Origin: Raillietiella orientalis
Lineage: Eukaryota
Length of the DNA stretch: 64,000 nt
Assembly: GCA_036172245.1 (NCBI GenBank)
Contig: JAYWIR010000006.1
Span: 620,001-684,000, forward strand
Reading direction: 5' to 3'
The position numbers were made by a program, and so were the translations under genes. Below are positions 3,131 to 43,900 of this stretch, piece after piece (position 1 is the stretch's first letter; the number at the start of each line of letters is the position of its first letter). Under the pieces are notes generated by a model. It saw only the letters and a list, made by a program, of their open reading frames with translations. It did not search any database and was not told where the DNA came from.

Positions 3131-6100
3131 TCACTTCTCCTCCGGGTAGGGACCCGCCAAGAGGTTCTTGAGGAACGCTGGAAGAGGGATGCCGCGTCAG
3201 CATGCCCACGTGAGGGGCAGCAGCACTCACCGCTGTACTGGACGAAGCCGTCCTCATTCTCCGGGGGGCAGGTGTCCTTCAGCAGCTGCTGCACCTCCGG
3301 CTTCTCCATCTTTTCTCCTACGGGGCAGCAGAGAGGGGGGGACCTTTGTTACAGATGTAAGACAAGGAGGCCCTGGGGGTGAAGGTCAGCCCCTCTTTCT
3401 TTGCCCTCCCCTCCCTTCCTGTTTTTTTTTTCCACTCGGGAACTTGCTGAAGCGGCCGCTTCCCTGCGCTGCGCTGGCAGGCGACTGCTTGGGCCAGGGA
3501 AGGGCCGGCCGCGCAGCAGACCATCCGTTCGGGAGGGCTGTCATAGTTGGTCAAGCGGCGACCAACTCGTCCCGAAAGCAGCCCCCCCCCCGCACAGCCA
3601 GGAAACCGCGAGGTGGGAGGACAAACAAACAGGCAAACAAAAGCAAAAACAACCGCTCGAGCCCTCTTCTCGGTTGCCGGGACGGGAACCTCGAGACCAG
3701 ACCCTCCTAACCTGCGGCGACCTGACTGGGTGACCCGGGGAGCGAATTTTCACGCCGAGAGTTAGTCGAGCTAGGTGGACGAACCCCTTCACTGCCCGGA
3801 AGCGTGCTCCGTAAAGCTGGAGGAGGAGTTCCAAGCATCTCCAGCGGGCCCGGGTCTTTCGTGCGCGTAGGGACCTTGGTCTACCGCACAGCGCGATTCG
3901 AAGAAACCAGCAGGCGACTGACCCCGGCCCAACTTGCGACTGGAACCCCCCGACCTCGACGTCCGACCAAGGAGGCCCCTAGTGCTGTCAGCCCTTCGCG
4001 AGTACTAGGGGCCTCCTTCGAGAGTATGGGTGGCCCCTTCCACCCTTTCCGCCGCCGCCACCTTACCCATTTCCGAAAGCGTCGCTGTTTTGGGAATCAG
4101 CCAAGGAGAAAAAACTCACGTCCGCCGCTGCTGCCATCTGTTGCATTTACGCTTTACTGCGCTACCAGGCACGCGCCGTGCCAACATCTCCCTAACAGCC
4201 ACGCTCCGTCTCGGAACGCCTGAGTAACTCGAAGAATTTCTCGCGGATTGCTGATGAGGGTTTCGGAACGGAGATCCGAACCCCAAAGGGTGACCCAGCC
4301 ACCTCCTCCGAGGACCCGGAACAGACGCGAAACCAGACAAACAAACAAAAAGAAATGGTCTGCAGCTGCCATGGACTCGAGCGATACTTGCCAACGGCGA
4401 GAAGGATGTGCTCCAACTCCGCTTTCAGTATGGTGCCGTCTTCGGCTTTGTCGTACAGGCGCATGACTTCCGTGAAGTCCTCGATGTTGCCCACGTCCTT
4501 CTCCTTCTTGATCTGGGCGAAGATGGGCAGGAACTCCTCCACGGTTAGCAGCTTCTCCTCTGTTTCCGGAAAAGAATAAGCAGCCGTGTCATCAGAGGTA
4601 TCAGTGCTGATCGCGTCCCCTCGCACTGGCGGGAAGCGGCTGGGGAGAGGGACGACCACCAGTGCCGGATTCCGCCTCCGGAGAGGAAAAATCCCATCTA
4701 AAGAGCGGTGTCCGCCCGCCCGTCGGGGCCTCGCAAGAGCGCGCGCTAAGCGTCTCTCAAAGGCTAAGCTCCCTTCCCCCGGTCCAGACGTTTGAGTAGA
4801 GCAACAGGGAGCGCGTTCGGGAGATGACCGGCTTGGCAATCCCATCTGGTCTCTCCTCTCGGCTGCTTTTTTTTTTCCCCCTCCGGGATTTCTGACACCG
4901 CTCCCGAACGAGCCGAGGCGCTCGAGAAAGGAATTCCAAGATCTGCCGAGGCAAGCGGCAGATCCCGGAGGCTTCCTGGGCTACGCGTTCCGGCCTGGGG
5001 AATCAGCTAGAACCTCCAGGCCGATCACTTCTTTCTGGACCATTTTCTTTCTCGGGAACGAGAAGGCGCCTCTTTCCCCCCATCCCCACCCCCTCGCTTC
5101 GCGACGTCGCGAGTGCACCACGGAAAGGAGAATCCTGGCCGGGGACATAGGCAAGAAAGCATGGCTTACTCCTCCTCTTGGTCAGCCCCACTTTTTCCAG
5201 CAAGGCTTGGGTGGGGTGCGTGTTCAGGGCCCTCAGCGCGTCTCCAAGGTAATAGGAATCCATCTTGTCGACCCCATCGAAGTCATAGATGGAGAATACG
5301 AATCTCGCCTCTGCAATCAGAAAGAGACTGTCGTCAGCCACCACCGCCTGGGTCGTGTGTCCGGGAGCAGCAAGGGACTGGGGAACGTGACGGCAGCAGA
5401 AAGAGCCACGGGTCACTTCCTCCCCTTGCCCGAGGCGGAACCTTCCTAGGGCGGGGCTATTTAAAAACTTCTCTTTCGTCTTGGCAGCCTTGCAGCCCTC
5501 CGCCCACGCTTGCACGTGTTCATGGAGGGGTGCATTCAGCGTTAGGGAAGGGAATCCAGATGGGGGTGGGGTGGGGGGTGAGTAGAAGGTACGTACTTTC
5601 CGCGTCTCTGGAACTCAGCTCCAAGGCCTGCAACACAGAAACGAACGCCATCTTAGATTTTTCGCCTTTTTTCAATCTGGCGCTCCTCTTTCGCCCGAAG
5701 GGGTCGCGGCTGGAGGACAGCGAGCCACGCGCTGCATTTCCCCGGTGGATGCGGATAGCACGGCACACCAACGCCCTCGCGCCAGGCGGGTCGGCGGCTT
5801 CGCCTGCCTCGGGCCGATCGACGGTACCTCTCCGGCGGCGGAACCATCGGCGCGGTGACCCCCTCCTGCCCCAGCCGGAAGAGGCCGAGTGCGAAATCCC
5901 TGCCCTTCGGACGTCCAGGATTCTCTGCGACGAGGGCCGGAAGACCCAGCAACGACGACGCAGAGACTCCGGAACTTGGGGACGGGAGCTCGAGGTGGGA
6001 GGGGGGTTCGCGAGAGGGAGGCGGGAGGAGGGACGAAGAAGGAAAGATACCTTCCTCCTCTTCCCAGATCATCAGATCCAGGCGATCCCGCATGCACGCG

Positions 6101-7659: not shown

Positions 7660-9352
7660 GATGTGGGCACCCTTGGTACGACCCGCGTTGGCGGCGGCCG
7701 TGTGCCTCCGCACGTGCAGTACCGAGAGCTGCGGGTTCGAATCCCGCCCGGAGCTCGAAACCCCCTCACCCCGCAGAACAACGGTGGTTGACCCTTAGGC
7801 TTCCAGTGCGGCGGCACCGGTGGAAGCCGGAAGCCCCCGTTGGCCCATTGGGATCGGAAGTCGACCCTCCGGGGTCCTGTTCCCCCTTCTAGGAAGCGCC
7901 TTCCAGAGAAAACTGGTAAGCGTCTCTTCGGGATTCTCTTCAGGGGAGGAGAAAAGAGGGAGTGGTTCCCTTTGCGGATGTCTCCCGGAGAATGGTCTCC
8001 TTTAGGAGATCCCCCTAGAGAGACCCCTCCGAAAGAATCCCTTTGAGGTTTCCTTCGGAGACAACCTGGAGGAGATTCCTTTCGGAACCCCTGGTTTCTC
8101 TCCCGAGAGTAGGAGGAAGGGACTCCTTCCTCCGGAACCCTTCCTGAAATTCGTAGGGCGGTCTCCTGGGTTCATCCCCCAACATGCTCACTGCGGATGG
8201 TCCTTGCGGATCCCAGAGTGAGTACGTGGGCAGAGACGATCCCCCTCGCTGCAACGATGTCCTTCCTGAGGAGGACACCTGGCAGCAGCCAATCGCCGCG
8301 GTGTGAAGTCTCCCGCAAGATTCGCAGGCAGGCAGAAGCTGATGAGTGGCTGGACCATGCATCAACTGGCAGAACGCCGCGACCCCGATTGCTGTTCCAC
8401 GAGAACTGCAGCTCTGGGGCGAGCTTCTCGGAATCCGAGCGAAGACCTGGAGTGGCTCCCGGTGCTCAAGAACAGCAGCAGAAGTGCCGGCAGGAGTCGA
8501 CACTTCCCATGTTACACTGGGCTCTCCCCTGCAACGCACGTCAACATCGCTGGTCCCGGAGGGAGGGGGCGAGCCCGGACTGTACCAGGTGAGGGGAACG
8601 CGCATCCCTCCCGCACCTGCCAGTGGTCTGTGCTGCCCTCCGGCGCCTATGGGAAAGGGTTTCGGAACGACCTTCCGAATACCCGTTGACACCCCTTTTA
8701 CCGCTTCTCTTTGTGTGGGATACGCTGCAGCCAGCCGCAATCTCAGTAGCACTTTGCTGCATTTGCGGGACTGCGGCGACCTGGAGCGAAACCAACAGAA
8801 GAAATGGGAGGAATACCGTCCAGCCCGCAGTTCTCTTTCCGCAGATGGCGGCCAGATGGTCCCACACGGGGCCTATTCGAACGGGCCTAGCCGGCATCCT
8901 GGAAAGGATGCGGACTCCCTCCAGTGGACAGTGGTCCCCTCCCGACCCTCCCTAAGATTTTTTATTTGTTTTTATTTGCTCTTTCTTTTGGTTTTCTCCT
9001 GTCTCCCTCCGCGGCCGACCCGGACAAACGGAGTGTGTGCTAAGACCACGAGTGTGAGTTTCTTCCAAAGTTCAAAAAACTCCCCGCCGTGTCCGGGTGG
9101 AATCGGAGGCCACCCAGGGTGGAGGGTTCCCCACTAAGGGTAAGGGGAACGGACTCTTCCTCCGGAACCTTCTTGGATTCATAGGGTGGTTCCTCCAGGG
9201 TTTACCTATGACCTGAAGAGTCACAGATGTGGCGTGGGCAGTGTTAAAGAGCTTTGAGGACCTCCCTACGGAAGGGGAACGAAGAAAAGTCAACAGGAAT
9301 TTCGCCTGCTCTTGAATGGTTCTTCAGAACTTGGAGAACCAAAAAAAAAAAA
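7660..9352 (+). mobile_element. tRNA-headed SINE-like element, copy 1 (head and body ~7660-8180; 3' part and A-tail ~9110-9352), interrupted by a LINE fragment
   Basis: Perfect tRNA T-arm/B-box GCGGG-TTCGAAT-CCCGC at 7731-7747. The body matches the copies at 20.3-21.9 kb (minus) and 41.0-41.7 kb (e.g. cccccgttg..gggatcggaagt..ccggggtcc; ccggaaccttcttggattcatagggtgg). Ends in an A-run at ~9341-9352. The 5' boundary is approximate. Confidence 0.75.
8190..9100 (+). mobile_element. 3' fragment of a Tx1/L1-clade LINE (zf-RVT-like C-terminus plus 3'UTR), degenerate, copy A
   Basis: Peptide LHWALPCNARQHRWSRREGASPDCTR*GERASLPHLPVVCAALRRLW resembles the zf-RVT motif (LH..LP...C..C...E...HL...C......W). 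ORF ends at 8955, followed by a T-rich 3'UTR. Homologous to 20810-21722. Confidence 0.7.
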
Positions 9353-20299: not shown

Positions 20300-21880
20300 C
20301 TTGAGCACCGAAACAGAACCGCCTTTCTGGGTAGAAGTCCACGTTGAACTACGATCCCCAACTCTTTAAGTCGAGGGATGACCCCCTGAGGGGATCACGC
20401 TATGAATCCAGGAAGAGAGAGGCGGCCTCTCTCTCACGCTTGGTAGGGAACTCCGAAGGGAACCTTCACCCTAGTTGTCTCCGGAGAGACCCCTCGGAGG
20501 GGACCACTTCTCATTTCTTTGCCGGAGGGAACCCGCAAGGGAAACGCTCTCTCTTTCCTCCTCCCCTGAAGAGAACCCGGAAGGGACGCTTCCACATTTC
20601 TCTGAAGGGTGCTTCTTACACTCCGAAGGGATAACCCCGAGGAGGGTGTCAAACAGCTCCATGGTACGTCCCCATTCTCACAACCGGAGGGAACGCCGAA
20701 AAGAACCGGGGCTCCTCGATTCCCGAAAGGACCCCGGAAGGTCCACTTCCGATCCCAACCAGTCAACGGGGACATCCGGTTTCCGGCTGCTTCCACCAGT
20801 ACCGTACCACTACCCTCCCTTAGGGAGCACATGGACAGCAGCCCTAAGGCTAGATAGGAGAAGGTTGCTGTGGAAATCTCCTGAAGGAGGCAAGAACTGG
20901 GCGATTGGGCGACGGGCTAGCCCACCGACGCTACGACCTCGATTGCTCAACGTTGTGAACTTTTGCTCTAAGGTGTGCTACTGAGTATTCTAGAGGAAGA
21001 CCTGCAGTGGATCCCGGTGCTCATGAATACCCGTACCCTCCCCTTGAAGTGGCGGGAGTTAGCGTTGATACCGCTGTACTGGGGCCTCCCGTGCAACGCC
21101 CGCCAGCATCATTGGTTACGAGGGAGAGGGATGGATTCAAACTGTGCAAGGAGTAGGAAACAAGAATCCCTCCTGCACCTCCGAGTGAACTGTGTTGCCC
21201 TCCAGCCCCTTTGGGGACGCTTTGCCGCGACCGTTGGAACCCCGTTTGCAACGCCAGAGACGTTTTAAAGCGCCTCTTCCAGCGCGACGCTCTCACGCAG
21301 GCCACATCCCCAATAGCCACGAGCTACGATCCCGTGGCTGCATTAAGCAACGCCAGAGAAAGCCAGAAGGACAGAAAAACATCCATTTTGCTGTCCTCTT
21401 CATGAGGACAGCGTCAAGATGGCCTCGTCTGGGAGTGTTGAAAAAGGAACTTGCGGGCATCCTTACAAGGATGCAGAGGATACCCGTCAGCACTTGGTAA
21501 TCCCTTCCCAAACCCCCTCCCCCTTTTTTGACTGTATGTTTTCCGTTTTATTTTTTTCTTTTTGTTTGTCTCTTCTTCCCCTTTGCTTCCGAGGCGAAGC
21601 CCACTGGCCTGCGCGCCAGTTCTCGGCAGGTCCCTTCTCGTTGTTATGAGTAACGCGGCAGAATCAAACATCCTACCACAGACATGTAGATTTTCAAAAT
21701 AAACGCCCCGCCGTGACCGGGTGTCAACCAGTGCCGCACCCGAAGCCAGTCGAGATCAGCCAGCTTCACCCTGCAGGGAGGAGGGGGTGACTCGAAACGA
21801 CAACGGCGTTGGTCCTTCCCTGGGAGGAATTTGAATCCGCAACGCTTGGTACCACGCGTGAAGACTGCAGCCACATGGCT
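20300..21880 (-). mobile_element. tRNA-headed SINE-like element, copy 2 (head ~21725-21880, body ~20300-20810), split by a LINE fragment
   Basis: Reverse strand reads cacgcgtggtaccaagcgttgcggattcaaattcctccc (degenerate T-arm). The body ccccgttgactggttgggatcggaagtggaccttccggggtcc...ctggattcatagcgtg matches copies 1 and 3. Confidence 0.72.
20810..21722 (+). mobile_element. 3' fragment of the same Tx1/L1-clade LINE family, copy B
   Basis: EDLQWIPVL...LYWGLPCNARQHHWLRGRGMDSNCARSRKQESLLHLRVNCVALQPLW (zf-RVT-like). T-rich 3'UTR, AATAAA at ~21698, and terminal cgccccgccgtgaccgggtg matching ctccccgccgtgtccgggtg in copy A. Confidence 0.72.
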
Positions 21881-22682: not shown

Positions 22683-22936
22683 ATGAAGACTCCAGAGAGG
22701 AAGGACGAAGCCGCGCTCTTCGTTCCCATTCCGATACAAAACTTCTTCTGGATTCAGTCAAGGTCAGCAAACAGAAACCAAAAAAAGAAAGAAAAAAAAA
22801 TTGCTTGTGGCCTCGTTCCGCGCCGCCCAAGATGCTCGCGTCCATCTGTAACCCGGCCTGACCACTGGTTTTTTTTTCTTCCTCTTTCAGTCGCTTCACG
22901 CAGCCCCTGAAGGACGAGAGAGACCCTCACATATCG
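22683..22936 (+). CDS. unc-80: unc-80 coding exons 1-2 (22683-22762, 22891-22936)
   Basis: MKTPERKDEAALFVPIPIQNFFWIQS|SRFTQPLKDERDPHIS; AG|gtcagc donor, tttcag acceptor, TCG|gtaagc donor; phases are compatible. Confidence 0.85.
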
Positions 22937-25900
22937 GTAAGCAGCTGTGGTTGTGGCTGTGGTTCGTCTCTGCAGTGGGGCTGATTGCTGCTGCTGCTTG
23001 TGGCACGGGTGGGGTAGGGGTGGGATGGGGTCCTTTCTACCTTCCACTCGCCCGCGCGTCCCCTTGCAGCCGACGGAGGACTCCGGACCCCGTGCAGGCT
23101 CGGCAGGAACACGAGATGAATGGTATCCATGGCAACGGAGGAGGACGGTATCGATCTCCGCGCGCGGAGATGCGGCCGAAAGAAACGCAAGTACCGTCAG
23201 CGATGCTCCCGGTTCCGGAATGCATCCGCGGCGGCGACAACGGGGTGCTCGACGATCGATCCATCGGGATGTGGCAGGGGAGAAAAGGGAAGTGGAATGA
23301 GCAGGGGACCCTCGAAGTCAGTTCTCCGCCACCCATCGGGGATGAACCGCGGCTGCTGGCGTCACGATGCCTCCCACCTGCTCCGGAAGCAGGGCGGGGA
23401 TCAGGCGACGGGATGCAGCCAGCGGTGAAGTGAAAGTGGAGCTCCCGCGCCGGCAGCGGAGAGCCGCGCGCCCGCCCGAGGCAGGGAGCATGCAGCAAGA
23501 AGCGCTTCCGCCGCTGCTCACCCTGCACACGGAATGGGCAGCATGAGCAAGAGTTCCGGTCTCTTCTCCTTGCCCCGTTCTCTTCCCTTTCGTTTCCTAT
23601 CTGCCCCCGATTCAGACACCAAGGAGCAGGGGTTGAGCCCGCCCCCCGCTTCCCGAGACACCTCGTCAGAGCATGGGCGTGTCTGCAGCACGGGGGAAGC
23701 TGCTGTTGCCGCGCCCGAGAGCTGCGTTTCCACCGTCAGCGCCTCACCAGGGAGGACGCTGCCGCGCGGCGCTCGGCATCCCGTCGGCAAGGAATCCGGA
23801 GGAGCTGCCACTGGCAATCGTCCCGTTGCCGGAAGCAGGCCAGGAATCCTTCCTCGGCCACCGTCCGCCACCTTCGTGCCGGATGCTTCTCTCACGGGTC
23901 TATCCGCAGTCTTCGGAACTGTCCAGAGGGAACTTCTATCTCGATGTCCGTTGCGCTCGCCACCGGATGGTGGGAAAAGAGGGAGGCGGAGCAACTAGGA
24001 GACTTGGCGCGAGACCCTTCACAGCTTCCGCAGGGGACGGGATTCAGGAATTAGGAAAAACAGAAAGAGAGAGACAAAAGAGTAAAAAGGATTAGGCAAG
24101 GAACGGTGGAAGACGAATGAAATTCAAGGAACATCCACGGCGCCAATCTTTTTTCACTGCTGTCCAGATGCTTTTCCCTCCCATCGTTGCTTTTTCCTCC
24201 CCCAGCAACTTATTATGCATTGAAAAAAGGGAAAAAAAACCTGCACGTAAATGCCATCGGACCTACAGCAACTTGGGAATGACACGGCGCTCTCCAGATC
24301 TGCCTGCGAGGAAAGGTGCTGCAGGGAAAAGCATAGAGGAAGGTGAACAAGAAACTGTAGAAAGCGGAGAAGAAAGCGTGAAAGAAAGCGTAGAGGAAAG
24401 AGTGGAAGAAAGCGTAGAGTAGAACATAGAAGGAAACGTAGAGAAGAAAGTGTGAAAGAAAACACAGAGGAAAGTGTGAAAGAAAGTGTAGAGGAAACCG
24501 AGTTTACGAGGTGCTGATTCCTGGAAGGAGTGAAAAGAGAGTCCCCTTGCCAAGAAGAGCTTCAAATTCTTGGAAGAGATTCAAGCAGGAATGAATGGTC
24601 GCTACTCGCGAGCCTTCGGAGACCCTTACTTGGGCGCTCTCAGCAACTCCTTCCCTCCTTCCGCTGTGCTTATTTCAGAGTTTCAGGAATACCTGAAAAC
24701 GCCGCTCATGCGATTGGCATTCCAGGATGTGAACCCAAACAGGAAATCCCATAAAGTAAACAGCACCCGTCGGAATCTTCACGAAGACCCCCCAACTCAC
24801 CCTACCTAGAAGGATCAGGAAATCCTTCCTGGAACTCTCTAACATTGAAAAATGCTCGGGAAGCTTCAGGGAAGCTCAACCCAGCAGCCGCAGCAACCCC
24901 AGGCCGTGAGGTGGCGCACAATCCGGAGGGAAGGATTCTCTTGGAAGTAGCGAGTATGGCGCTGCTCTCTGGTGACGCGCTAGTTCTCTCAACGGAGAGG
25001 CACCCATTCCTCCTGGCTCATGCAGCTTTCGAGGGCTATCATGACCCTCAGATCTGGGAACTCCAGCAGAAGACGCCGATGATCCCCTGAGTGTCGAGGA
25101 AGAGACTCAGAGTTACCCTCGGCGGATGAAGCTGACACATGAGCTCCATCCACTGGCTACTCATGAGTCATCAGCTGGTGACCATGAGACCCGCAAGAGC
25201 TGACCAATCGGGAGTGAAGGATTCGATCCTCTCAGCCCAGATAGGACGAGGCAAGAATCTTTAAAGCACGTTCCACGGAGAAGTGTCACTGACGCCTGAC
25301 CTGTGAAACATTTCTGTGGGAACTTGGGAGTGTTCCTGTTTCCTGGATGCCGACCGGGTTTGCCAGGCTGCAGATCGGAAATCTCAGCCATGGGATGCAC
25401 AGGAGTGAACCACGATAGCTCCGGAAAACAGGGACACCTCAGCAGGCTTTGAAACCTCAGGAGCGTTTTGCTCCAGGATAAGAAATCAGTTGCTCTGTCG
25501 GCATTGAGGATCCCAGTCTGAGAATTCAGCGGGTCCTCTTTTCTAGACTGCGACAAAAGTTCAAGAGGAAACAATCCCGTGTCGAAGATCGACGCACCGA
25601 AGGAGGAGGCGATCACGAGATTGTGAATGTTTCCGAGGAGTCGTCGAAAGATGTGGACGAATGATCGCTCATCCCTTCGGGGAATCAAAAGAAGCAGGAT
25701 GTATCAGGAGAGCATGGAAGGCACTTTCCGCATAACAAAATGGCTTCCACAAAGCTGTCGAAAGAGTGAGCTCCGTCATCCGTCTCCACCGTGTCACAAG
25801 AAGGAAACTTCCCCTCTCTAATCTTGGAGAGCTGTCTCGAAAGAGACCTCGTGCTGAGTTTGGTACGACGGCGCTGATGCGTGCATGGATATGCTCACAA

Positions 25901-28900
25901 CTTACCCCCTCGTTCACGTGGTTCGGTCCTCTAAATCGGCTCGTTTGCTGGAATCCATCGAGCTGAGCTACTGAGAGAAGTTGCAGCTGCTGCAAGCGTT
26001 TCCAAGGATGAAGATTGAAGAGTCTCCAGTGCTTCCTGGAACCATTTGCATCCTGCATCCAGAATGTTCCTTACGTGTCCTGTAAAACTATATCTTCCTC
26101 CTAATTACGCTCCTGTCTTTTTCTGTATGGCGCCATCGTAGGAGGATGTTTCAGACCTCTCTCCCGACCTGGTCATTTGCCCATCTCCTACTCAAATCTG
26201 TTCAGGTTTCTCCTAGTGAAACGATCGCATGTGATTTCTGGAATCATTGCTGACGATCTCTTGGGCTGTTTTCCCACTCTTCTCCCTGATATACTTTGCT
26301 CTGGTGGGCTGAAGAGCTTTTTCTCACACTTAGCTCAAACATTGAGAAGGCACCTCCTGTCCTCTGAAGTGCACTTTGGCCCAGGAATTTGACGAAGTCG
26401 CGAATCTGTTCGCCGTTTTCTCTGTGTCGTGCTTGCTGTAGTCTGGAATACACATCCACCATCTGAAACGGTTTTCCAGGAATTTCCAAAAGTTGGTTTC
26501 CCTCTCCAGCATTCCTGCTAGTCGCCTCTCCAGCTTCCTCCAATGCTTTTTCGAGGTGAAAACAAGTCCTCCGCATGGTTTCTCGCCTGATTCAACTTGA
26601 GCAGCAGCCCGAGGATGACATTTATCAAGTCGCTCCTCGCTAGCACGCAGCAGGCTTCCTTCCTGGAGTGTGAAAGCTCTCCCCGAAATACTAGGGAAGA
26701 GCAGCCCGTGGATTCTCTCTTTCTTTACGTAGCAGCCCACTAAGATAAATAAGACCATCCCTTTTCTTATCTTATCTGCTCCTTCGCTGCTTGTAGCTCT
26801 ATCTGCTCATCCCATTGCTCTTCATGCCTACTCTTTCGTCTTATTAACACAATGGAATGACCGACTGATCACCTGCGTATCAACGCTACTAGATCTCCTG
26901 GAATCCCCTCTGAGCACGGATATATCCAAACCGAAGCCCACTGCATGATTATGTGTCACAGAACTGTCTCCATGTGGCAAGGGATGCGCACAACGAGCGA
27001 TCTCCAGCTTCTCAAGGGCGCAAGAGCACAAAACGAACCGACCGATTAGCACACCACGATCTCCGGAAGATGCCGAAAAAAGTCTTCTTGCAATCATCCT
27101 CGCTTTTTGATCGTGTTCCAGAGATCTCTTTCGATAAAGTGCGAAGCGACAAGCTGGGGTGTTGTGGACAGATCTCCCGACCCTCACGGAATCAGATGAT
27201 GTAAGAAACACCTGACAAGCACAAGTCGATCTTATTCGAGGAAGCGTTTGCGACGAATCGAGGCGGAAATAAGGCTGATCAGCACGCTTATTATTTGGGT
27301 TAGACGAAGGTGCTGTCCATCATCATGCGTGGTTCGACTACGCATGATGGAGAGCGGGCCAGCGATCAAAGTAACTACGATGCATTGTAATCGTGCGAAA
27401 GAAGGAAAAAGGGAGTAGCATCCTGGATAAACAGGAATTCGAAGTCTCAGAGTGTGTTCCAGAGTGAGGGCATTCAAGGCAAGTGCCAAGCTGGATTCAG
27501 AGGCGGATTCTTTGAGTGATCGCCTCTGGGTCTCCATCAGGAAGAACGACTCTGTCCTTTCAGCGCGTGGACGAAAAGTGAAAGTGCTCTTGTTGGAGAG
27601 AAAAAGGAAGTACTTTCGCGGACCAATTACAACAAGATCAAAAGATAATCAAGGTGTCAATGAAAATCCAGATGAACATTCCAAAGTTCGAGTCAGAAAT
27701 GGGTCTTGAACTCAGCTCCAGTTTCCAGCCTGTGAAGCACCTGCAAAGCAGCCGAGTCAAATCCCATCGCTCCTGAAAGATCTTTTAGCATCCGGGATCT
27801 TCATCCTTAGGATCGCACAAAGCATCCGAGACATACTCGGACGTCTACTGAGGCGAGATAAGAGAACATAAGTGGACCGACGAGCAAGAACGCGACGAGT
27901 TGTTAGATCGTTCACCAAAAGATGGCTCGTCCCACGGCAGAAGCATCTGGCAATTTTCAGATTTCTGTTGCCACCGTCCTCTCCGCGAATCCTCACCTCA
28001 GTCATCCGACTGTTGCGCCTGTCTTTGAGGTGAACTCTCTGAAACTGAGACTCTCCTTTTAAGTCCACTCATCCCCTCAGTTCTGGGAAACACGCCCCGT
28101 GGACACGAAAGTCGGGAACCGTTGAATTGACCCTGAGGGATGAATCAAACGATGGGTTACGGAGATTCGCCAGATCATCCTAGGGAAGGTGTTGGTTACC
28201 AGACTCAGCACGATAGAGTGATCATAGAAGTGGGAACCTGCTAAGTAGTGGGCAACGACTCTCCTGACGATGCAAACCGGCCCTGAAGACGGGTGGAGCT
28301 CAAGTGTCGGGCCCGCGCCCAACTGACGAGAAAGGGTTGTCTTCCGGCATTCCTCCTATCCTCGGAGGACGGCGGGTTGCTCAGGTTCCAGCGAGTAGGA
28401 GGCTCGTGATGGCGCTTGCGAGATGGCTTGGAGTCGCCGTCGGTGCACATCTTGGTTGTAGCAGTAAGCACTCCAGTGAGATACCGGAGGATGTGGAGGA
28501 TGAGCAGCACGCAGCATGTTCAAACGTGGAGAGCTTCTGAGAACAGAAGTCTGTGGAACAACTGAAAAAGGACTGCAGAAGGATGATTGAAGGAATGGTT
28601 GCATCGAAGTTTATCATGTGGAAGCACAGACAGCTTGAATTCGATACAGTACGAAAAACGTACAAACACGCGCCCACCCACGTCTTTGAGACGAAGCCTT
28701 TCTGATGCAAGCAACTGTGCAACCTCCACCTCTTCTCGTGAAAGCTTCCTGTTGGTTTCTTTTTCCTCTCCGTCTCTCTAGAGTTGGTCCAGAAATCGTT
28801 AGCTTTCCTCGGGAGCCTGAGGTCACTCGGCACTTCCGCCAGAGACCCCGTAAGGGAATTTCCACGTAGTCCTTGGACCCCGTGAAGAAAACTTCAAGAC

Positions 28901-31900
28901 CAGTCTTCCTTCCACCCGTAACCGAGGGCACCACCACCATTGTGACCTCCTCATTTCTCTTCATCCCGATTTACGTCTCCTTTTATCTCCCTTTTCCCTT
29001 GTTTCACGCTCGCGTAGCGGATTGTCACCAGGAGAGCCACCGGAGCTCTTTCTTTCCTCAGGGAACCAGATGGCTTTCGTCGGGAGATGGTGATTCCTTC
29101 ACGTGCCTTCACTGATCAGTTCTTCTTCTTCTTCTTCTTGTAGGGCATGGGTGTTTTTCCGTATCCCGATCTGAACACATTGATGTTTATTTTGGTCCTT
29201 GTTTTGGTAGAGAAGAACTCTTTTCTCTTTCCTGCTTTAAGATCTTCCGTGGCTCGTGCGATCTCTTGTTTGACAAAAGCCGCTTCAATCCATCGAGGCT
29301 TCCGCGAGCTCCCCCCGTCCTTGCAGTGGTAATCCTCAGGAGCGCAGGATGACCAGAGTGTTTGACTCGCGATGCTACCTGCGGCACCTTTTTTTCCGGT
29401 TACGTCCCGGGCAGCCTGTTCCTCTGGACGAGAGGAAGGGAAGTTTCTCACGATCAGGTCGCGAGCCGGAATCGCGTAGGAAGTCCCCCTGACCTGTCCG
29501 GTCAACTTGGAAGCGCTCCTCCCGAATAAGCCGAGGCCTACGACACAAGCGTCGGGTGGCGGTCGCTGGCCCCCGCCAACGTGGCGTTTGCGCGGGGGAG
29601 AAGAAATGATCCCGATCCCGTTTGCTCCCTTCCTGATCAGGTGTTTCCGGTTTCCCCGTAGGAGCTGAACGAGGTGTACAAGGTAAGGGACGCTTCCGAA
29701 GTCCGAGGTGACGCCGCGTTCATGCCAAGGTCCTTGAAAAAGTCCTGGTCCAGAACATTCTCTTCGGCTTGTCGCCGAGCCTTACCGAGGCAATCAAGAC
29801 CATCCCAAGGTGGCGATTGATACAGATCGCGTTCCCGCACATCATGAAATGCGCCGCAAACGTCATCTGCAACAGGTGGAGCCCCCAACGCCCTATGAGT
29901 CCTTTTTTTAGAAAAAGTTCTGAAGGCGCATAAGAGGGATCGAGATCCTCGCTTCCATAGAGACCAAGCTGCTCTACACCCTCCACTGGATCCTGCTCCA
30001 AGCTGCAGAGGAATGTTACGACGCTGACCACGACAAGGGAATCATAAGGCCTGCCGAGTTCTACACTTTCTCTATTGTTTCCATCCAGGTGAGGGGGGAA
30101 TCCAGCGCTAGACCGCAAGAGCGCTCTTGCATCTTAGACCTTCGTCTTCCTCTTCGCTCCACTGACGCACCTGCTGCAGGAATGGGAATTCAGGAACTTC
30201 CGTCTGGAAAACGGGTTTCGCATTTGGTCTGCGCTGTGGGATTACAGGACCCCTGACGTCTTTTGCTTCTCCATCCCTGTGAAGCCCCACAAACTGTGCT
30301 TCAAGCAAGATCCCATCAACCGATCTCGGAACAAGTTCGGAGATGTATTCATCGGAGGCGCAGGTACGGTTCCTCTGCGAGTGACGAGCGCAGCCTCAGG
30401 AGAGGATTTCGTATATCCTTATCAGGGACCCAGATGGAGGCGAAGGAGAAAAAACAGAATTTCGGAGATATAGACGTAAGTTGGCCGTCTCCCGAGCTCC
30501 TCGAGCACGCTTCGGATGCAGATTTTCATTCCCGTCATCTGTCACCAGGCCTCTTCTTGTAGCTCTGTGCCCATGTGCAAGCGAACCGCGAACTACCTGA
30601 AATGCTCGTTCCTCCTTAACGGCGGACGGGACGCAGTCGATCCGCGAGTTCGGGATTTGTCCCTGAAATGGAAATCTGGGAGTCGTTGTTCCTTCCTGTG
30701 ACTTGATCTCTTTCTACTTTGCTCTCTCGAGAGATTCCATGCGAAACAAAGCGTGGGAAGGAAAACAAAACTCTGGTCAACTCGATGCTATCGGAACATC
30801 TCTCACTCTGAGGAGCCCAAACACTTTGTTGGTCACGCAGAGAAGACCACTGTTTCATGGAGAAGCTTCCTCTTCACATGTGTATCAAGCTCCAATATAG
30901 GCTATACATTGAGAGGGAAGTTAAGAGCAGCAGCTGCGGAAAAAAGGCTATTCGGAGACGCAGTTTTTCCACATCGGGATGACCACACCCGAAAATGAAA
31001 CCGCCCTTTCGCAAGAACAGCATCTCGCTGGTTCTGTCGTTGACTGAGCAGTAAATTGCCTCTGACTCTTGAACGATAAAATGATCCTTCTCGCAAATTC
31101 CAAGAATCGTCAGAAAGATTATGTTCTTTGGGTCCATGAGGATTTCGAAAGCCTTTTTCTCATAGTTCACCTATGCAGCAACCCTTTCCTGTGAAGCTGA
31201 TTCTTCATCATCCTTCACAAAGACCTCCTTTTTCCTTTCGACTTTGAATTCTTTGATCTTAAGCATCCTTCTTGGTTTAAGATGTTGGTTAACTTTACGA
31301 AGCAACTGCAACGAAGAAAACTGATGGCGCTTATGAAATTCGTTCCCTCGAATCTCATCAGAATGTCTTCATAGGTTTCTTCTTTGTCGAATTCTGACAG
31401 CTATCCAGAAACCATCCCAGAAGAAGGCTCCAGTGCTGAAGAACATCTGGTAACTACACAGCAAATTTTTCGCCCCTGTATACCAGTACCTTGCAGGTCA
31501 TCTTCCGATTAGACGAAGCTGATGTTGACTGCTGTAAAAATTCCAACGTCTACAAGGTAAAGAGCGCACGTGAACATTTCTGCACGCTTCCATTGTCCCA
31601 CGTGGTTCGGATCTACTTTTTTCCAGAGTTGAATTTTGTAGGGAAAGCGCTTCTTGTGTTGAAAATTTGCCGCGAGAGCCGAAACTTTTCAAGCACCCAA
31701 GTAGGCGTTTCTTCTTGCCTGAATGGCAGCATCTGCCAAAGATGATCCGTGTTGCTACATACGAAGTCAACGCTGACCAGTGTATCTTCCATCTGTTGAA
31801 ACAGCACTTCCTCTGCTCTGAAATGCATATCTGTACCACGTTAAATATGAAAGCTGATTTTTTCATCTTAATCTCGATGTATCAGGATAGCACTGCTGAC

Positions 31901-37900: not shown

Positions 37901-40900
37901 TATCCCATCCAAGTGTTGTGTACCCAGTGATAAGGATTACCCAGCACCACACCCCCATCTCTTCGCCGACGGTGAAAAAAAAGGCAAGTTACGTGGTTGG
38001 TGAAGAGTTCGTTCGAAGCGAAGGAGACTCCGTGACCCCCAGTAAGGGGACGCGCGAGAACGAGTGTGACCACTTCTTGCAACGCTACATCCGAAACAGC
38101 TAGCGCACCAACACGAACCAACACAAAGTCCACTCAACCAGCTTAGTCTTGGGGATTGGCGCGCAGCTTCCATCTCGCGGGGAGTCATGGACCAAGAGCC
38201 GTGAATGCAAAGGACAAGCACCGATGCTGACAATAATTTTATTATCTCGATTGGGCATGAATAGCGAGCAAAGAAAGAAAATCAAAAATGACGTAAATTC
38301 AGGATCCGTGCTCTATCATGCAGTCACTCAAAATTCTTTGCTTCATGTTACGAGCAGGCCGCTTATTCTCGAAAGGAGGTCTGCCTGAGATCCCAGTCCT
38401 TCGACCGGAAGTGGTGGAGGGACGAAGGCAGACTTCTCTCTCCCTCTCTCTCTCTCGATGTTTCATCTGTTCAGTGCAGAAACAAGAAGACTCCTGGTTC
38501 TCGTGGATGTTTCAAAAATTCGCCTTTGGATAATCGCCAGTTCGATGATGAGCCCGCCGTCTCCAAGGGTAAGTGGTACCCAAGGTTTCGAACAGCCAGA
38601 GAAGTATCCGAGGCGTGTGTGACGATACGAAGAAATGCGGAGAAGAACTGTGTCGACTTGTTTTTCCCTCTTCGAGAAGCAGGAATCTCTTCATGTCAAT
38701 AAGTCGGCCTGAAGTAGATCTTTCGGACACCGGAAAATATGTCTTCCTTCCTTGTTTAATCATGAAAGGAGAACGGATTTCATCCTCGGATTACGGATTC
38801 TTTCTTTCACGCTCAGACGTTCTTCAGAAGGTTCCCGGACTCCGACTGAAAAAATCCTCGGTAAAGATTCTTGAAAACGAAGCTGCAGTGGCAAGAAGGG
38901 AGGATTGAAAGATTGTCATCTTTCCCACTGAGGACAATCATCTGTTGTTAGTAGCATGTGGCTTTTGAGACGAAATTGCGTGGAACACTCGGAGACAGTG
39001 TGCCACTACGTGTCTCTTTGTGCGACGACCTGGTCCAAGAACGAGTATCTTTATGAGGAAAATCTAAGCGGAAAATCTCCCAAGGCATCGACGACAGAGG
39101 GTTCGGGAAACGATCCAGGAAAAGTATGAATGGAAAATGATCTCTGACGTGCGAAGGACCATCGAAAGTCCTTCAAGTGCTAATTTTTGGTCATGACCTC
39201 ATGTCTTGACTCTGAGCAGAACACGCCCGAAGCACCAGTCGAGGAGGCAGTCCACGGCTTTCGCCTCCATTGGGCAATGGAGGAGCAGCAGCAGATATTT
39301 GCGAGTGCGGAGCAAAGATGGGAGGCTGTATATCTGTATCTCAAAGGATCCGCGCAAACATCCGGGACAGTGAGATGCATCGGATGTACGGAAGCGATTG
39401 GATTCTGTACAGAGTATGCATCCTCGAATCCGAAAAATCGCAGCAGAAGCATGAAAGCATCTTTGCGTTTTTCTACATAGCATGATGTCCCATCTCCGTT
39501 TCGGAAGCTGCCGGATCTCGTCCTTGTGACACTGCGAATGCTGATTCACATCTCAAAATGGGATTGACTCTCATGATCCAATTTGATCCTTGCAAGCACC
39601 TTCTGTTGCCGATGCCTTCATCGTTCTGATGGTGAAGTGCCCGAGACGGAATAACGGTGCTGCATAGAATATCCCTGTCTTCTCTCAGTGGACGTTTCCC
39701 AGCTCTCAAAGACACATTTCTGCTGATGCGCAAGAGCATCCCATCTCCCTAACTTTACCTTCCCTCCATCGGGCCGGTGCTGATGAAAATCCCGAACGCC
39801 GAATCTGGGACGATCAGAATCCCGAAAGATCTTGAAAATGAATGCTTATTATATACACAATATGTAAATTTGTATATAGATTAACACATATCATAAAGAT
39901 TCTAATGTATATATATATATGTATGCCTATTATGCATATTGATATATGTATGTATGTATAGATTAATATGCAGCTTTATTTTAACATGCATATCTATTTA
40001 TATAATTAATAGCATGTGTTAATATGTGTCTTAAAGATTCTAAAAAATGAATATATATGTTTATTATACATATATATTAACACTATAATAAACATATGCA
40101 TAATTAATAAATTCCACGTTAGCATATATAATGAACATATGTATAATAAACGTGGTATTTATTTTTAAGATCATTGGGTATCTTGATCGTTCGGGATTTC
40201 GTTCGGGATAGCCCAGCCCCCGTAAGATGCTTTGGCACTATCCAAATGATGGAATGCTCAAGGATCACTTATGTAAAACTGACGTGGATAACTTGAGGGG
40301 GAAAGGAAAAGAATTGACCTCAGTTACTGTGAGGATCGTGGGTGGACGGAATGCACTCTTAGCTCCAGGCTCCACAACTGCAACTTCAGGAAGCAGTGCC
40401 GCAAACGGAGCTCCATGAAGAGATTCAGCATGCTGGGGAATCTATGTTGCCATGTGAACCACTGATCTGCGGGCTGGAGGGCTATTCCTGGATACCTTGG
40501 ACGTAGTCACATACTAAATCACCCCCAACCTCCCCAAAACGGAGACACTGAATGATATTCTTGTGGGAAAAGAACCTCGCTCGACCACGGATCCGAGACC
40601 CACAAGGACGAAGATGAACCCAAGGATGATCTTCGAGAAGGGACATTCGAATCTTCAATGTCACAGAAATCGAGAGTAATTTTGCGAATCAGCGCATTCT
40701 TTCGGAACCAAGGAAGCCGAGATCGCCTGAGGCAGAGGGTGTGGGCTCTCGGATATCTTGCCGAAATCCAAAGTCTCCATCGGAAGGACCGGCAGAACCG
40801 ACTTTATGCTGAACCGTACGTGGTGTGCGGATGGAGAGCCGCGTTCTGTTCCAGAAAAACTCGTACGGGTTCGGGATTCGCTTCCCGGCAGCATTCGCGG

Positions 40901-43900
40901 TCCGGGACCATCAAGGCGAGGGGCATGGCGAAATGAGTGAACACCCGCGTGGCATCCGCAGCGATGACCGATAAGCCTCGGAGACCCTTCGCACGTAAAG
41001 AAACGTACGCCGTGCGTCCGCGTTGGCAGTCACGCGCAGCACCGAGCGTTGCGGGTTCGAATCCCACCTGGAGAAGGATCGACTCCGAGAAATGAGGAGT
41101 GCGTCGTGGTTTCGATTCCTCCCCCCCGCAGGTTGACGATGGTTGACCCACGGGATTCGGGTGAGACACTGATGGAAGCGGAACCCCCGGATGCCCCCGT
41201 TGACTGACCGGGATTGGAAGTTGGTCTTCCGGGTCCTTCCAGGAATCAAGGAATCGTTTCCCTTTGGGTTCCCCTCGGGTCGTGAAAACGGATCCATCTT
41301 CATCACCCTGGGGAACCCTCCATCGCGTTCCATGGAGCTGGTCGATGCCTCCCCTCGGAAGGTTGCCTCTCCAGAGTATAAGAAACGCGCTGCTCCCTTC
41401 GAGGAAGCCCCCTTCAGAGAAACCTGGGAAGCGTCCCTTCGGGGCTCCCTCCAGAGGAGGAAACTAGGAGCGGTTCCCTTGAGGGTGCCCTCCGGAGAGA
41501 ACAAGGAAGGTAGTTCCCTTTGGGATCCCTCCCAAGCGTAAGAGGAAGGGATTCCTTCCACCGGAGCCTTCTTGGACTCATAGGGTGGTCCCTACGGGTT
41601 TCCTCCCCATAACCTCGTCCTCAAGCGGCGTGAACGGTGTCAGAGAGCTTCGTGATCCCCTAGGCGAACGGTTCTCGAGTACTGAGAGATCTAAGGGGAA
41701 AAAAAAAGGAAGCTGCAAGGAAAACGGCGAAAGAAGAGAACCTAAGAAAATTTCCATCACGATCGATGTTAGACGGTAAAAACGAGAACACGCGCGCGAG
41801 CACGCAACGCACGCACACGCGCTGTGTCCTGCCTTCCTGTTTGTCTTCCCCTCCTGCCGAAACCTTCCGAAAACTGGAAACCGTGGCTGCCGTGACCCGC
41901 TGTCTTTAGGGATTAAGAAGAATCAGAGTATAAGAAAGGTCCCATCTCCCTGACTTTACCTTCGGGATTAAGAAGAACCGGTTGCGCGCGGGATCGACTC
42001 GAACTTCCTCCTGACCTCTGCGCTTTGGGAGGCGGGGTGTGAGGGACGGTCGCGAGTTCGAGAGCGGCATCTCTTCCGAACCGTTCCTGCCTTTCCGATC
42101 CGGATGTTCGGCTCGGAGAAGCGGGAGACATCTCGAGAATTGTCTCTTCAAGAAATTTCTCCGTGTTCCTCAATGGACCGCTCTTTATTTCATGGGGATC
42201 GCAGAAATGCATGAGCTTCGATGCAGCTGAGAAAGTGACCGGTTCGAAACCTGCCCCCTTCCTGAGGTCCATGACGGATACCAACATCTCGTACTCCTCC
42301 ACGTACTCGAATCAACCCATCGAAGCGAAGTTCTTCGTGGACGACGAGGGCCGCTTGAAGGTGAAAGCAGTCGCGTGGGTGAGTGCCGGAAGCCCTTCGA
42401 GATCCCCCCTCCCGATCCACGCAAGGGGAGTAGGTGGTCTACCTGGTGATCAGGAATGGTGTGCACTGCACGAATCGTGTTTGTGAAACTCTGCTGAACC
42501 TTTTGGAGGTCCTTTTAGAGTTAACAGAGGACGAAGCATTTTCCGGCGACGACCGCGATGAGAGCTTTGGATTCCGAGACGAATCCTATTGGTTCCTGGA
42601 CTCGGTGGTTCGGTGGGTCAGACCACGCGGCTAAACATCAATGGCTTCCGTTGCAATACCAGAATATTTCTTTACACTGGATGCGGCGTATGCGGAGAAA
42701 AATCGCTGATCACGGATTCCCTTCGATACCGTGGGCAGAGCTTGCTGCTAAAGTTACGAGAACGAGACGACAACCTCTTCGGGCAGTATTTCAGGGACAT
42801 GATGCAGGAGTGGTCGCTGGAAGACAAGCTGAAGTTCTTCCACTCCTTCCTGTGCTACTGCTGCGAACCTTCGCTGCTGCCTTCTTCGCACGGTAAGTCC
42901 CGTTCCTTCCTCTGCCCTCCAGGCTCTCCTATGAGCGGGAATCGAAAGGTCGGTTTTGGACGTTGAGATTCCGGGGCTAAATGACCGCCTCGAAAGGCGA
43001 CCTCCACTCTGTGCTCTTCTTGGAGAGTGGGATGGAAGGGAATTTTCTTCGTCATGCCTAACAAGTATCGGCTCGCCCCGAACGATCAAAATCTCGAAAG
43101 AGTATAAACATAAATACAGCTTTATATATGTTGTATATTTATATAGATCAGTATACAGAGTAATATATATTACACATTATAAAAAGTAAATATATGCGTT
43201 TATTATGTACATTAATATGTATATTTATATATGGATTTATATAGAAATTTATTTTAACATGCATAGTAATATAATTAATTTTATGTACTAATATATATTG
43301 CTAATATATTTAATACTACTTGTGCTTATTATGTAAGCATACACAATAATGATATATGTATATATATACATCAATGTGCATCATAAGCATATATATTTGT
43401 TTTTCATAATGTTTATGATATATGTTTACGAACAGATTAACAAGTATCATAAATTATCATATATCATAATCTATACGTAAATATATATACATATATATAT
43501 ATATATGTATATTAATATACATGTGTATTTATTGTTAAGATCCTTTGGGTTTTCGATCGTGAGGGGCTTTGAGCCAAACCCCCTTGAAGACTATTTTGAG
43601 CCCTCGTTTGACGTTGACCGGAAGAGGCAGATAAAGTGAGGAAGAATGATCGTGCCTCAACATCCATATCTTACTAGCAATAGCCGCAGCGTGCTACTCC
43701 TGTCGGTCACACCCTTCGGGCATGCCAAAGCATGAGAACCTGCAAGAGATTTCTTTGAAAGCAAAATGCTTGCCAGAAAAGGTCAACCGCAGGAAGGAAA
43801 GACGAGGTCCATCAAGCTGGTTTCAGTTTAGAAAAACCTAGCAAGGTCGCCTGCCGCGAATCTTGCAACCGGTGTGGAGGCCAGGAAAGCAAGAAAGGGG

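Follow-up and report, generated by a model that had tools for sequence, protein, structure and literature searches.

Degraded rDNA units and fragments that lie dispersed outside the rDNA arrays are known from the human genome (Robicheau et al., 2017, PMC5381670), where, in the parts of that study considered here, centromere-proximal clustering is stressed and the rDNA-like sequences include near-full-length units with IGS. In addition, the sections of Longo et al. (2015, PMC4994717) on which we draw report 109 LSU fragments that are scattered over the human genome. The 28S-specific retrotransposons R1/R2 and their relatives, and elements that carry rDNA out of its arrays, have been reviewed (PMC10946416, cited for its passages on this topic). 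The locus that we analyzed, situated in a 64-kb stretch of DNA (the window), is best read as a fragment of a kind already described, and as ordinary genomic debris rather than a hidden rDNA unit.

Within the window, a colinear 18S-ITS1-5.8S-ITS2-28S (5′ half) unit had been proposed at positions 24690–28950 in the initial annotation. Only approximately 380 nt of this interval (28124–28501, plus strand) is ribosomal. This piece is a 28S (LSU) rRNA-derived pseudogene fragment that is truncated at both ends, and its ribosomal origin is far beyond chance. It was aligned by nhmmer (envelope 28120–28521, E 1.1e-29) with positions 1803–2169 of 3918 in a profile that combines 11 eukaryotic rDNA loci, and this was the single match of that profile in the 64 kb. 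The best-kept core of the fragment (28148–28349, plus strand) is the part that was aligned by the Rfam covariance model LSU_rRNA_eukarya (RF02543), over model positions 1171–1379 of 3401 (50.5 bits, E 5.9e-9). This score reaches the gathering score of 50, as a partial match only; it is the sole Rfam match at the gathering threshold in the whole window, and eukaryotic LSU was the best model of its clan for this piece. The complete fragment corresponds to approximately positions 1125–1530 of the same model, or about 11% of its length. Similarly, all 53 HSPs obtained by sensitive blastn, which involved 46 of 107 LSU loci, lie inside 28124–28498, with none in the rest of the proposed unit. The diverged 28S core that had been placed on the plus strand at 28120–28540 is therefore genuine.

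The fragment is dead as an rRNA. We defined 140 near-universal columns as those with at least 95% conservation in 60 distinct eukaryotic LSU sequences, and the fragment keeps 98 of these, while 38 are substituted (24 transitions and 14 transversions) and four are deleted; as the references were selected for the exact presence of a 25-nt motif from the region that the fragment covers, 25 of the 140 columns are invariant by construction, and the fragment agrees with 20 of these 25. Of 101 consensus base pairs, 61 are canonical in the fragment and the remaining 40 are broken. Canonical pairing in the 60 reference rRNAs has a median of 97% and a minimum of 72%, and the printed covariance-model alignment of the core has non-canonical pairs flagged at many positions. 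These broken pairs show decay and not functional long-branch evolution, and the transition:transversion ratio fits ordinary neutral decay. Although homologous with functional eukaryotic 28S (RF02543, its best-matching family) over approximately 380 nt, the fragment differs from it in covering only about 11% of the model, in having no upstream 5.8S/ITS2, and in failing to keep structure and universal positions as a functional LSU does, with 40 of 101 pairs broken and 30% of the near-invariant positions lost. The terminal branch of the fragment is 1.11 substitutions per site, whereas the references have a median of 0.16 and reach 0.61 at most. Its sister in the tree is the reference L078 (support 0.86), a placement that is uninformative on the donor since the references are unlabelled.

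The fragment lies in sense orientation in an interval of approximately 6.9 kb between two early, arthropod-type unc-80 exons. The upstream coding exon, which carries the start codon (~22683–22760, plus strand; 3′ end approximate, as the splice donor is unmapped), was identified by a homolog motif and tblastn: its translation opens with a Met and agrees with the PIPIQ.F.W motif at the N terminus of UNC80 homologs, and three such homologs (P0003, P0004, and P0014) gave tblastn matches that start at 22704 or 22716 and end at 22808 (E 0.045–0.094). The next detectable coding exon (29724–29876, plus strand) encodes part of the UNC80_N domain and is followed on the same strand by further exons at 29924–30091 and 30141–30374. 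Pfam matches to UNC80_N span 29712–29930 (E 9.6e-21) and 29924–30199 (E 5.2e-12), and the exons have 68–77% identity by tblastn to arthropod UNC80 proteins. An exon for a conserved stretch of about 30 residues, which UNC80 homologs have between the parts encoded by these two exons, was sought between 22.8 and 29.7 kb, where nothing convincing was found, so that the number given to the intron in the initial annotation (intron 2) is provisional. Minus-strand tblastn matches of two UNC80 homologs (28568–28212, E 0.066 and 0.19) overlap the rRNA-like piece and were taken as chance. The initial annotation was right about the kind of sequence involved, as it had recognized rDNA-derived DNA outside an array, long escaped from homogenization and sense inside unc-80.

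We consider it probable, at roughly 0.8, that the locus is an isolated, anciently inserted and non-functional mid-28S pseudogene fragment of approximately 380 nt in an unc-80 intronic interval. In the most likely scenario, a single insertion brought a short stretch of rDNA or rRNA from the host itself to this site. Filler DNA used in the repair of a double-strand break is one possible route, and reverse transcription into an internally truncated copy is another. Both routes are purely conjectural, since no signature of insertion, be it a target-site duplication, an A-tail or another, was found. Our literature search recovered no publication on retrotransposed truncated rRNA pseudogenes. The fragment would never have belonged to an rDNA array at its present site and would have undergone long neutral decay since its insertion. 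It has no rRNA role and would be present in the unc-80 pre-mRNA until its intron is spliced out.

Such an origin would place the fragment with the rDNA orphons, based on the portions of PMC5381670 compared here: it is likewise rDNA-derived, far from any detectable array, degraded towards random, non-functional, and located in ordinary single-copy DNA. Both rRNA ancestry and a location outside an array, in unrelated unique sequence, are found in the fragment, with derivation from the host being presumed. Unlike the human sequences emphasized in those portions, however, what we found is one piece of approximately 380 nt from the mature 28S, in the intron of a gene in an arthropod-like genome.

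It is also conceivable, though unlikely, that the 28S piece was carried here by a dispersed repeat, either a transposable element or an rRNA-derived SINE-like family that had picked up an internal 28S segment, and that the locus represents one old copy among many. Pieces of rDNA inside mobile elements are documented, examples being SINE28 and the elements that move rDNA from arrays (in the relevant parts of PMC10946416 and PMC4994717), and the high divergence of the fragment could partly be that of a family rather than a reflection of the age of the copy. Other interspersed repeats are present in the window, among them pieces of tRNA-like SINEs near 7.7, 20.7, and 41.1 kb. However, no part of 22800–29720 recurs elsewhere in the 64 kb, and a search around the fragment revealed neither terminal repeats nor an A-tail nor a convincing target-site duplication. 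Two short direct repeats bracket it (14–15 nt, 86–87% identity), at unequal distances and of a size expected by chance. With the scattered LSU fragments and SINE28, as characterized in the sections of PMC4994717 used here, the fragment shares being short, 28S-derived and interspersed; SINE28, by contrast, uses the 3′ end of 28S, whereas our piece is internal, has no recognizable tail or duplication, and is far more diverged. Neither a head from the 28S 3′ end, nor an A-rich tail, nor target-site duplications, nor many copies (counted within the window) were found, all of which characterize SINE28-like elements. The R1/R2 elements and their relatives offer a possible route by which 28S sequence could reach non-rDNA sites, but no domain of such an element adjoins the fragment. 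The target sites of R elements lie much further 3′ in 28S than the segment represented here.

Searches for coding sequence around the fragment also argue against a mobile carrier, as no reverse transcriptase or other transposable-element domain adjoining it was found with Pfam. There were no families at E ≤ 0.1 for 18 ORFs of at least 80 aa and none for the six read-through frames (X at stops), while for the 96 open frames of at least 45 aa in 23800–30200 the only matches above the cut-offs were those of the two UNC80_N exons. When the 927-aa read-through frame was used as the query, a word-indexed search returned no homolog at E ≤ 0.01, and an exhaustive HMMER search returned one protein, a multi-Tudor protein of 3813 aa (E 4.5e-10). 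We attribute this similarity to chance, based on the fact that a weak match of approximately 80 aa (~33 bits, 30% identity) was counted over six near-identical repeats. A decayed coding element at 24.5–29.7 kb was considered and rejected. Five minus-strand ORFs of at least 150 aa occur there, compared with 0.61 in shuffles (none of 300 shuffles reached five), and per-frame stop counts are unremarkable; since the same excess of long ORFs over shuffles recurs in almost all 5.2-kb blocks of the window, it is a background property and not a feature of this locus.

Two further origins seem very unlikely, even taken together: that the locus is the last recognizable trace of rDNA taken up from a parasitic or symbiotic eukaryote on a long branch, or that it heads an as yet undescribed family of arthropod mobile elements based on an internal part of 28S. 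In either case it would have lodged, sense to the gene, in the first long intron interval of unc-80. Taken by itself, horizontal acquisition from such a eukaryote, with donor rDNA that was already divergent, seems scarcely credible to us. In its favor are the very long branch (1.11 substitutions per site, where the reference median is 0.16) and the low overall identity of the fragment to the best of the 60 references (61%, in a comparison from which host rDNA was absent). However, an rRNA that has lost 40 of 101 pairs and has changes or deletions at 42 of the 140 near-universal positions could not function, and most of the divergence must therefore have arisen after insertion, whatever the donor; the 24:14 ratio fits neutral decay here as well. 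The hundreds of rDNA copies and abundant rRNA of the host would also be a far more available source than a foreign donor. There is no need to invoke the origin from a symbiont or parasite that had been suggested.

A complete, extremely degraded unit running from 18S to the 5′ half of 28S at 24690–28950 is similarly improbable. In its favor, the sections of PMC5381670 used here describe near-full-length, highly degraded rDNA units outside arrays in the human genome, weak plus-strand motif look-alikes occur at 24756 and 24881, and spacers and expansion segments are species-specific and beyond the reach of a comparison that lacks host rDNA. However, the 28S fragment is isolated in the window. At E ≤ 10, cmscan returned three matches in 24500–27300, none of them ribosomal and thus with no SSU or 5.8S, and six in 23000–31000, of which the LSU piece alone is ribosomal; at E ≤ 1 there were two matches in the whole window, the LSU piece and a weak mir-297, and no other rRNA. 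The Rfam model was the sole basis of the SSU search. These searches left an isolated 28S fragment with no SSU or 5.8S match, the very outcome named beforehand as refuting a complete unit. The rDNA profile, which includes the 5.8S region, gave no match to 5.8S, to the 28S 5′ domains, or to 28S outside the fragment. Both the profile and the flank alignments indicated that the strongly conserved 28S segments expected directly upstream and downstream are missing. Consequently, neither an upstream same-strand SSU, nor a 5.8S between SSU and LSU, nor a contiguous 28S 5′ end was found.

The flanks of the fragment (24500–28100 and 28520–30500) were compared with eight reference rDNA loci, the upstream flank with their upstream parts and the downstream flank with their downstream parts, and the Smith-Waterman alignments lacked colinearity and, in 14 of 16 comparisons, scored at shuffle level. 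The exceptions, each with one reference, were L001 upstream (17 vs. a shuffle maximum of 15) and L021 downstream (20 vs. 14), and they consist of a short isolated match and a T/C-rich 28-mer. The best flank-to-rDNA alignments sit in variable regions or low-complexity sequence. To these results can be added a power control in which whole 4-kb rDNA loci were decayed in silico to a degree like that of the fragment (30% substitutions and 3% indels, with leave-one-out profiles): all 20 remained detectable over nearly their full length at E ≤ 1e-111, a somewhat optimistic figure as the simulated loci may be nearer to the profile than host rDNA.

The 18S-like and 5.8S-like anchors that had been reported in the correct order were not confirmed. 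The 530-loop-like 16-mer at 24881 is one of four matches in the window with at most three mismatches, and an equally good match (two mismatches) on the opposite strand at 23344 lies outside the proposed unit. Because such matches are enriched across the window (four vs. 0.55 expected; none of 100 shuffles reached four), the one at 24881 seems to be CAG/GCC-rich sequence and not rDNA. A motif from the SSU 3′ region has one match, with three mismatches, at 24756, which is 125 nt upstream of the 530-like sequence, so that their order is wrong for an SSU. For a third SSU motif there were no matches, and the six window matches to a 5.8S motif (at most three mismatches) include none between 22712 and 31852.

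Chance resemblance, or an assembly chimera with true rDNA reads, is extremely unlikely, since despite a covariance-model score that barely reaches its threshold (50.5 vs. 50) the E-values are 5.9e-9 for that model and 1.1e-29 for an independent profile, and a chimera with genuine rDNA reads should differ hardly at all from functional rRNA and have rDNA neighbors, whereas this piece is approximately 30% changed at conserved positions and bounded by non-rDNA.

As an old and isolated 28S pseudogene fragment, the locus is one more case of rDNA or rRNA debris decaying in an intron, a process that earlier work has recognized as a minor contributor to junk DNA. It also counsels caution, based on the fact that a strongly conserved rRNA core stays recognizable long after its surroundings have been lost, and that short near-matches to famous rRNA motifs nearby can mimic a whole rDNA unit. 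If the orthologous introns of related species were compared, the fragment could be used as a datable neutral marker.

Rfam cmscan at gathering thresholds returned a single match in the 64-kb window, to the eukaryotic large subunit rRNA (LSU_rRNA_eukarya, RF02543), at 28148-28349 on the plus strand. The match covers positions 1171-1379 of the 3401 in the model and scores 50.5 bits (E 5.9e-9), the gathering score being 50. In the covariance-model alignment the conserved single-stranded stretches agree well and many positions are marked as non-canonical pairs. At E<=10, a cmscan confined to 27300-29200 recovered the LSU piece alone, aligned over a shorter stretch and scoring 38.5 bits. The reference set used for comparison comprised 107 LSU loci of eukaryotes, picked from metagenome contigs by a 25-nt motif of the Rfam consensus. 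With 23001-31000 as query, blastn (word size 7) gave 53 HSPs over 46 of the 107 loci, every one inside 28124-28498, with identities of 67-96%. A nucleotide profile was built from the 11 loci that reach at least 1700 nt upstream and at least 1500 nt downstream of the motif, thus spanning approximately 5.8S, ITS2 and the initial ~3.3 kb of LSU sequence. With both strands of the whole window searched, this profile had a single match (E 1.1e-29), at 28124-28501 on the plus strand (envelope 28120-28521; profile positions 1803-2169 of 3918). The 28S core that had been marked at 28120-28540 in the initial annotation is therefore real and rightly placed, based on the Rfam match.

That annotation had gone further and read 24690-28950 as a colinear 18S-ITS1-5.8S-ITS2-28S 5' half. 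Its 18S and 5.8S are absent: cmscan of 24500-27300 at E<=10 gave three matches (a Streptococcus antisense RNA, bxd_4 and DUF805b), all with E>2 and none ribosomal, and of six cmscan matches in 23000-31000 at the same cut-off the LSU piece was the only ribosomal one. We also compared the flanks with eight reference loci by local alignment, 24500-28100 with the part upstream of the fragment's counterpart and 28520-30500 with the part downstream of it. Scores ranged from 13 to 20, while shuffles averaged 13-15 with maxima of 14-19, and the positions of the best alignments varied between references without colinearity. Shuffle maxima were exceeded only by one locus upstream (L001, 17 vs. 15) and another downstream (L021, 20 vs. 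14), the latter score representing a T/C-rich 28-mer matched in that single reference.

The motif anchors of the proposed unit fared no better. The 16-mer at 24881 taken for the SSU 530 loop (two mismatches) is one of four window matches with up to three mismatches, another two-mismatch match lying at 23344 on the minus strand. Since such matches are enriched across the whole window (4 vs. 0.55 expected; four reached in 0 of 100 shuffles), the anchor points to CAG/GCC-rich sequence instead of rDNA. A motif of the SSU 3' region matched once, with three mismatches, at 24756. The 530-like motif follows 125 nt further downstream, whereas in real 18S the 530 loop precedes the 3'-region motif by more than 1 kb; 16 of 100 shuffles contained at least one match. 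A third SSU motif had no match in the window, and none of the six window matches (up to three mismatches) to a 5.8S motif fell between 22712 and 31852. The upstream edge of the marked region is adjoined by a purine-rich tandem repeat at 24359-24497 (period 12/24, ~5.7-11 copies, 63-73% matches).

Could a full unit of equal decay escape detection? As a control, five reference loci of ~4 kb were each left out of the profile in turn and given 30% substitutions and 3% indels by simulation, with four replicates apiece, and the products went through the same search as the window. All 20 decayed loci were matched over nearly their full length (typically from profile position ~20-800 to ~3800, E<=1e-111), with the caveat that the profile may lie closer to these loci than to the rDNA of the host. 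As all were detected, the match of only 367 profile positions in the window means truncation, not uneven decay, a result that covers the conserved rRNA regions, spacers and expansion segments being particular to the host's own unit. The rDNA reading thus stands as regards an orphan rDNA-derived sequence and falls as regards a colinear unit, the ribosomal match being confined to the 28S core.

The fragment was aligned with 60 distinct reference segments to describe its state. At columns conserved in at least 95% of these it keeps 98 of 140, with 38 substituted (24 transitions, 14 transversions) and four deleted; 25 of the 140 are invariant through the reference selection, and the window agrees at 20 of these. 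On the RNAalifold consensus of the references (101 pairs), canonical pairing has a median of 97% and a minimum of 72% among references, against 61 of 101 pairs in the window (36 unchanged, 16 changed on one side and nine on both sides), the other 40 being broken. The FastTree terminal branch of the fragment is 1.11 substitutions per site (references: median 0.16, maximum 0.61). The lost conserved columns, broken pairs and long branch are the signature of a dead copy under neutral decay, not of a working, fast-evolving rRNA.

Two further readings were considered, namely that a mobile element carried the fragment and that it belongs to a gene on the opposite strand. No Pfam domains were found in 18 ORFs of at least 80 aa or in six read-through frames (X at stops), and none besides the UNC80 exons in 96 open frames of at least 45 aa. 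A 927-aa read-through frame had no homologs in a word-indexed search; an exhaustive search gave one protein, a 3813-aa multi-Tudor protein (E 4.5e-10), similar over ~80 aa (30% identity; window 28498-28722, minus strand) to a repeated inter-Tudor segment. We judged this similarity to be due to chance, based on the fact that the E value arises only through summing weak similarity over six near-identical repeats. Long minus-strand ORFs (at least 150 aa) in 24.5-29.7 kb number five, against 0.61 in shuffles; this might suggest a coding element, but the same excess is general to the window. Open frames of at least 150 aa exceed dinucleotide-preserving shuffles in nearly every 5.2-kb block of 9001-61000 (for example +6/-6 vs. 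1.9/2.8 at 19.4-24.6 kb), so that long "ORFs" are unreliable here owing to the general composition of the sequence. Around the fragment, neither terminal repeats nor an A-tail were found, nor any target-site duplication that was convincing, and nothing in 22800-29720 recurs elsewhere in the window.

Other repeats are present. Three interspersed copies at 7711-7985, 20524-20784 (inverted) and 41031-41233 share ~81-86% identity and contain a tRNA-like "GGTTCGAATCCC" box, which suggests that they are probably a tRNA-derived SINE family; ARAGORN found no tRNA genes in the window. AT-rich (TATG/TA)n-like repeats at 39881-40060 and 43187-43522, direct and inverted copies ~3.3 kb apart, contain a weak mir-297 look-alike (E 0.64), the one match besides the LSU piece in a whole-window cmscan at E<=1. 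Two open frames on the minus strand at 4192-5614 resemble exons of an EF-hand myosin essential light chain, judged by eye from the translations.

The placement of the rDNA-derived sequence inside unc-80, in sense, was confirmed by same-strand coding exons on both sides. Downstream are two UNC80_N matches on the plus strand, 29712-29930 (Pfam E 9.6e-21) and 29924-30199 (E 5.2e-12), and tblastn delineated plus-strand exons at 29724-29876, 29924-30091 and 30141-30374, with more downstream; the closest proteins are decapod crustacean and insect UNC80 (~68-77% identity). Upstream, the extreme N-terminus of UNC80 has a weak tblastn match at 22704-22808, seen three times, where the translation has a Met start and the conserved N-terminal motif. 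Because these flanking exons are on the plus strand, the fragment lies sense-oriented within the ~6.9-kb interval separating the N-terminal exon from the UNC80_N exon. An exon for ~30 residues conserved between them in arthropod homologs was not found in any plus frame of 22760-29724; this exon may be missing, subject to alternative splicing, or simply short or diverged.

The best-supported reading takes the fragment for an isolated piece of central 28S rRNA sequence, from either the gene or its transcript, that was inserted long ago and has since decayed neutrally. It would have entered by capture at a repaired break, or by abortive or template-switched reverse transcription. Features of this kind are already known. 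Robicheau et al. (2017; PMC5381670) describe dispersed rDNA-derived sequence in the human genome, both small rDNA-like fragments and nearly complete but degraded units, a category that the fragment fits, and Longo et al. (2015; PMC4994717) report 109 LSU fragments scattered through the same genome. The latter also describe SINE28, a SINE that is built on 3'-terminal 28S sequence and has target-site duplications and an A-rich tail; the fragment, in contrast, is internal to the 28S and has no recognisable tail, no convincing duplication and no second copy in the window. Mobile elements carrying rDNA pieces are listed in a 2024 review (PMC10946416). For R. orientalis, a putative host origin and single-copy state of the fragment are likely and, since it is sense to unc-80, it would be passively transcribed within the unc-80 intron.
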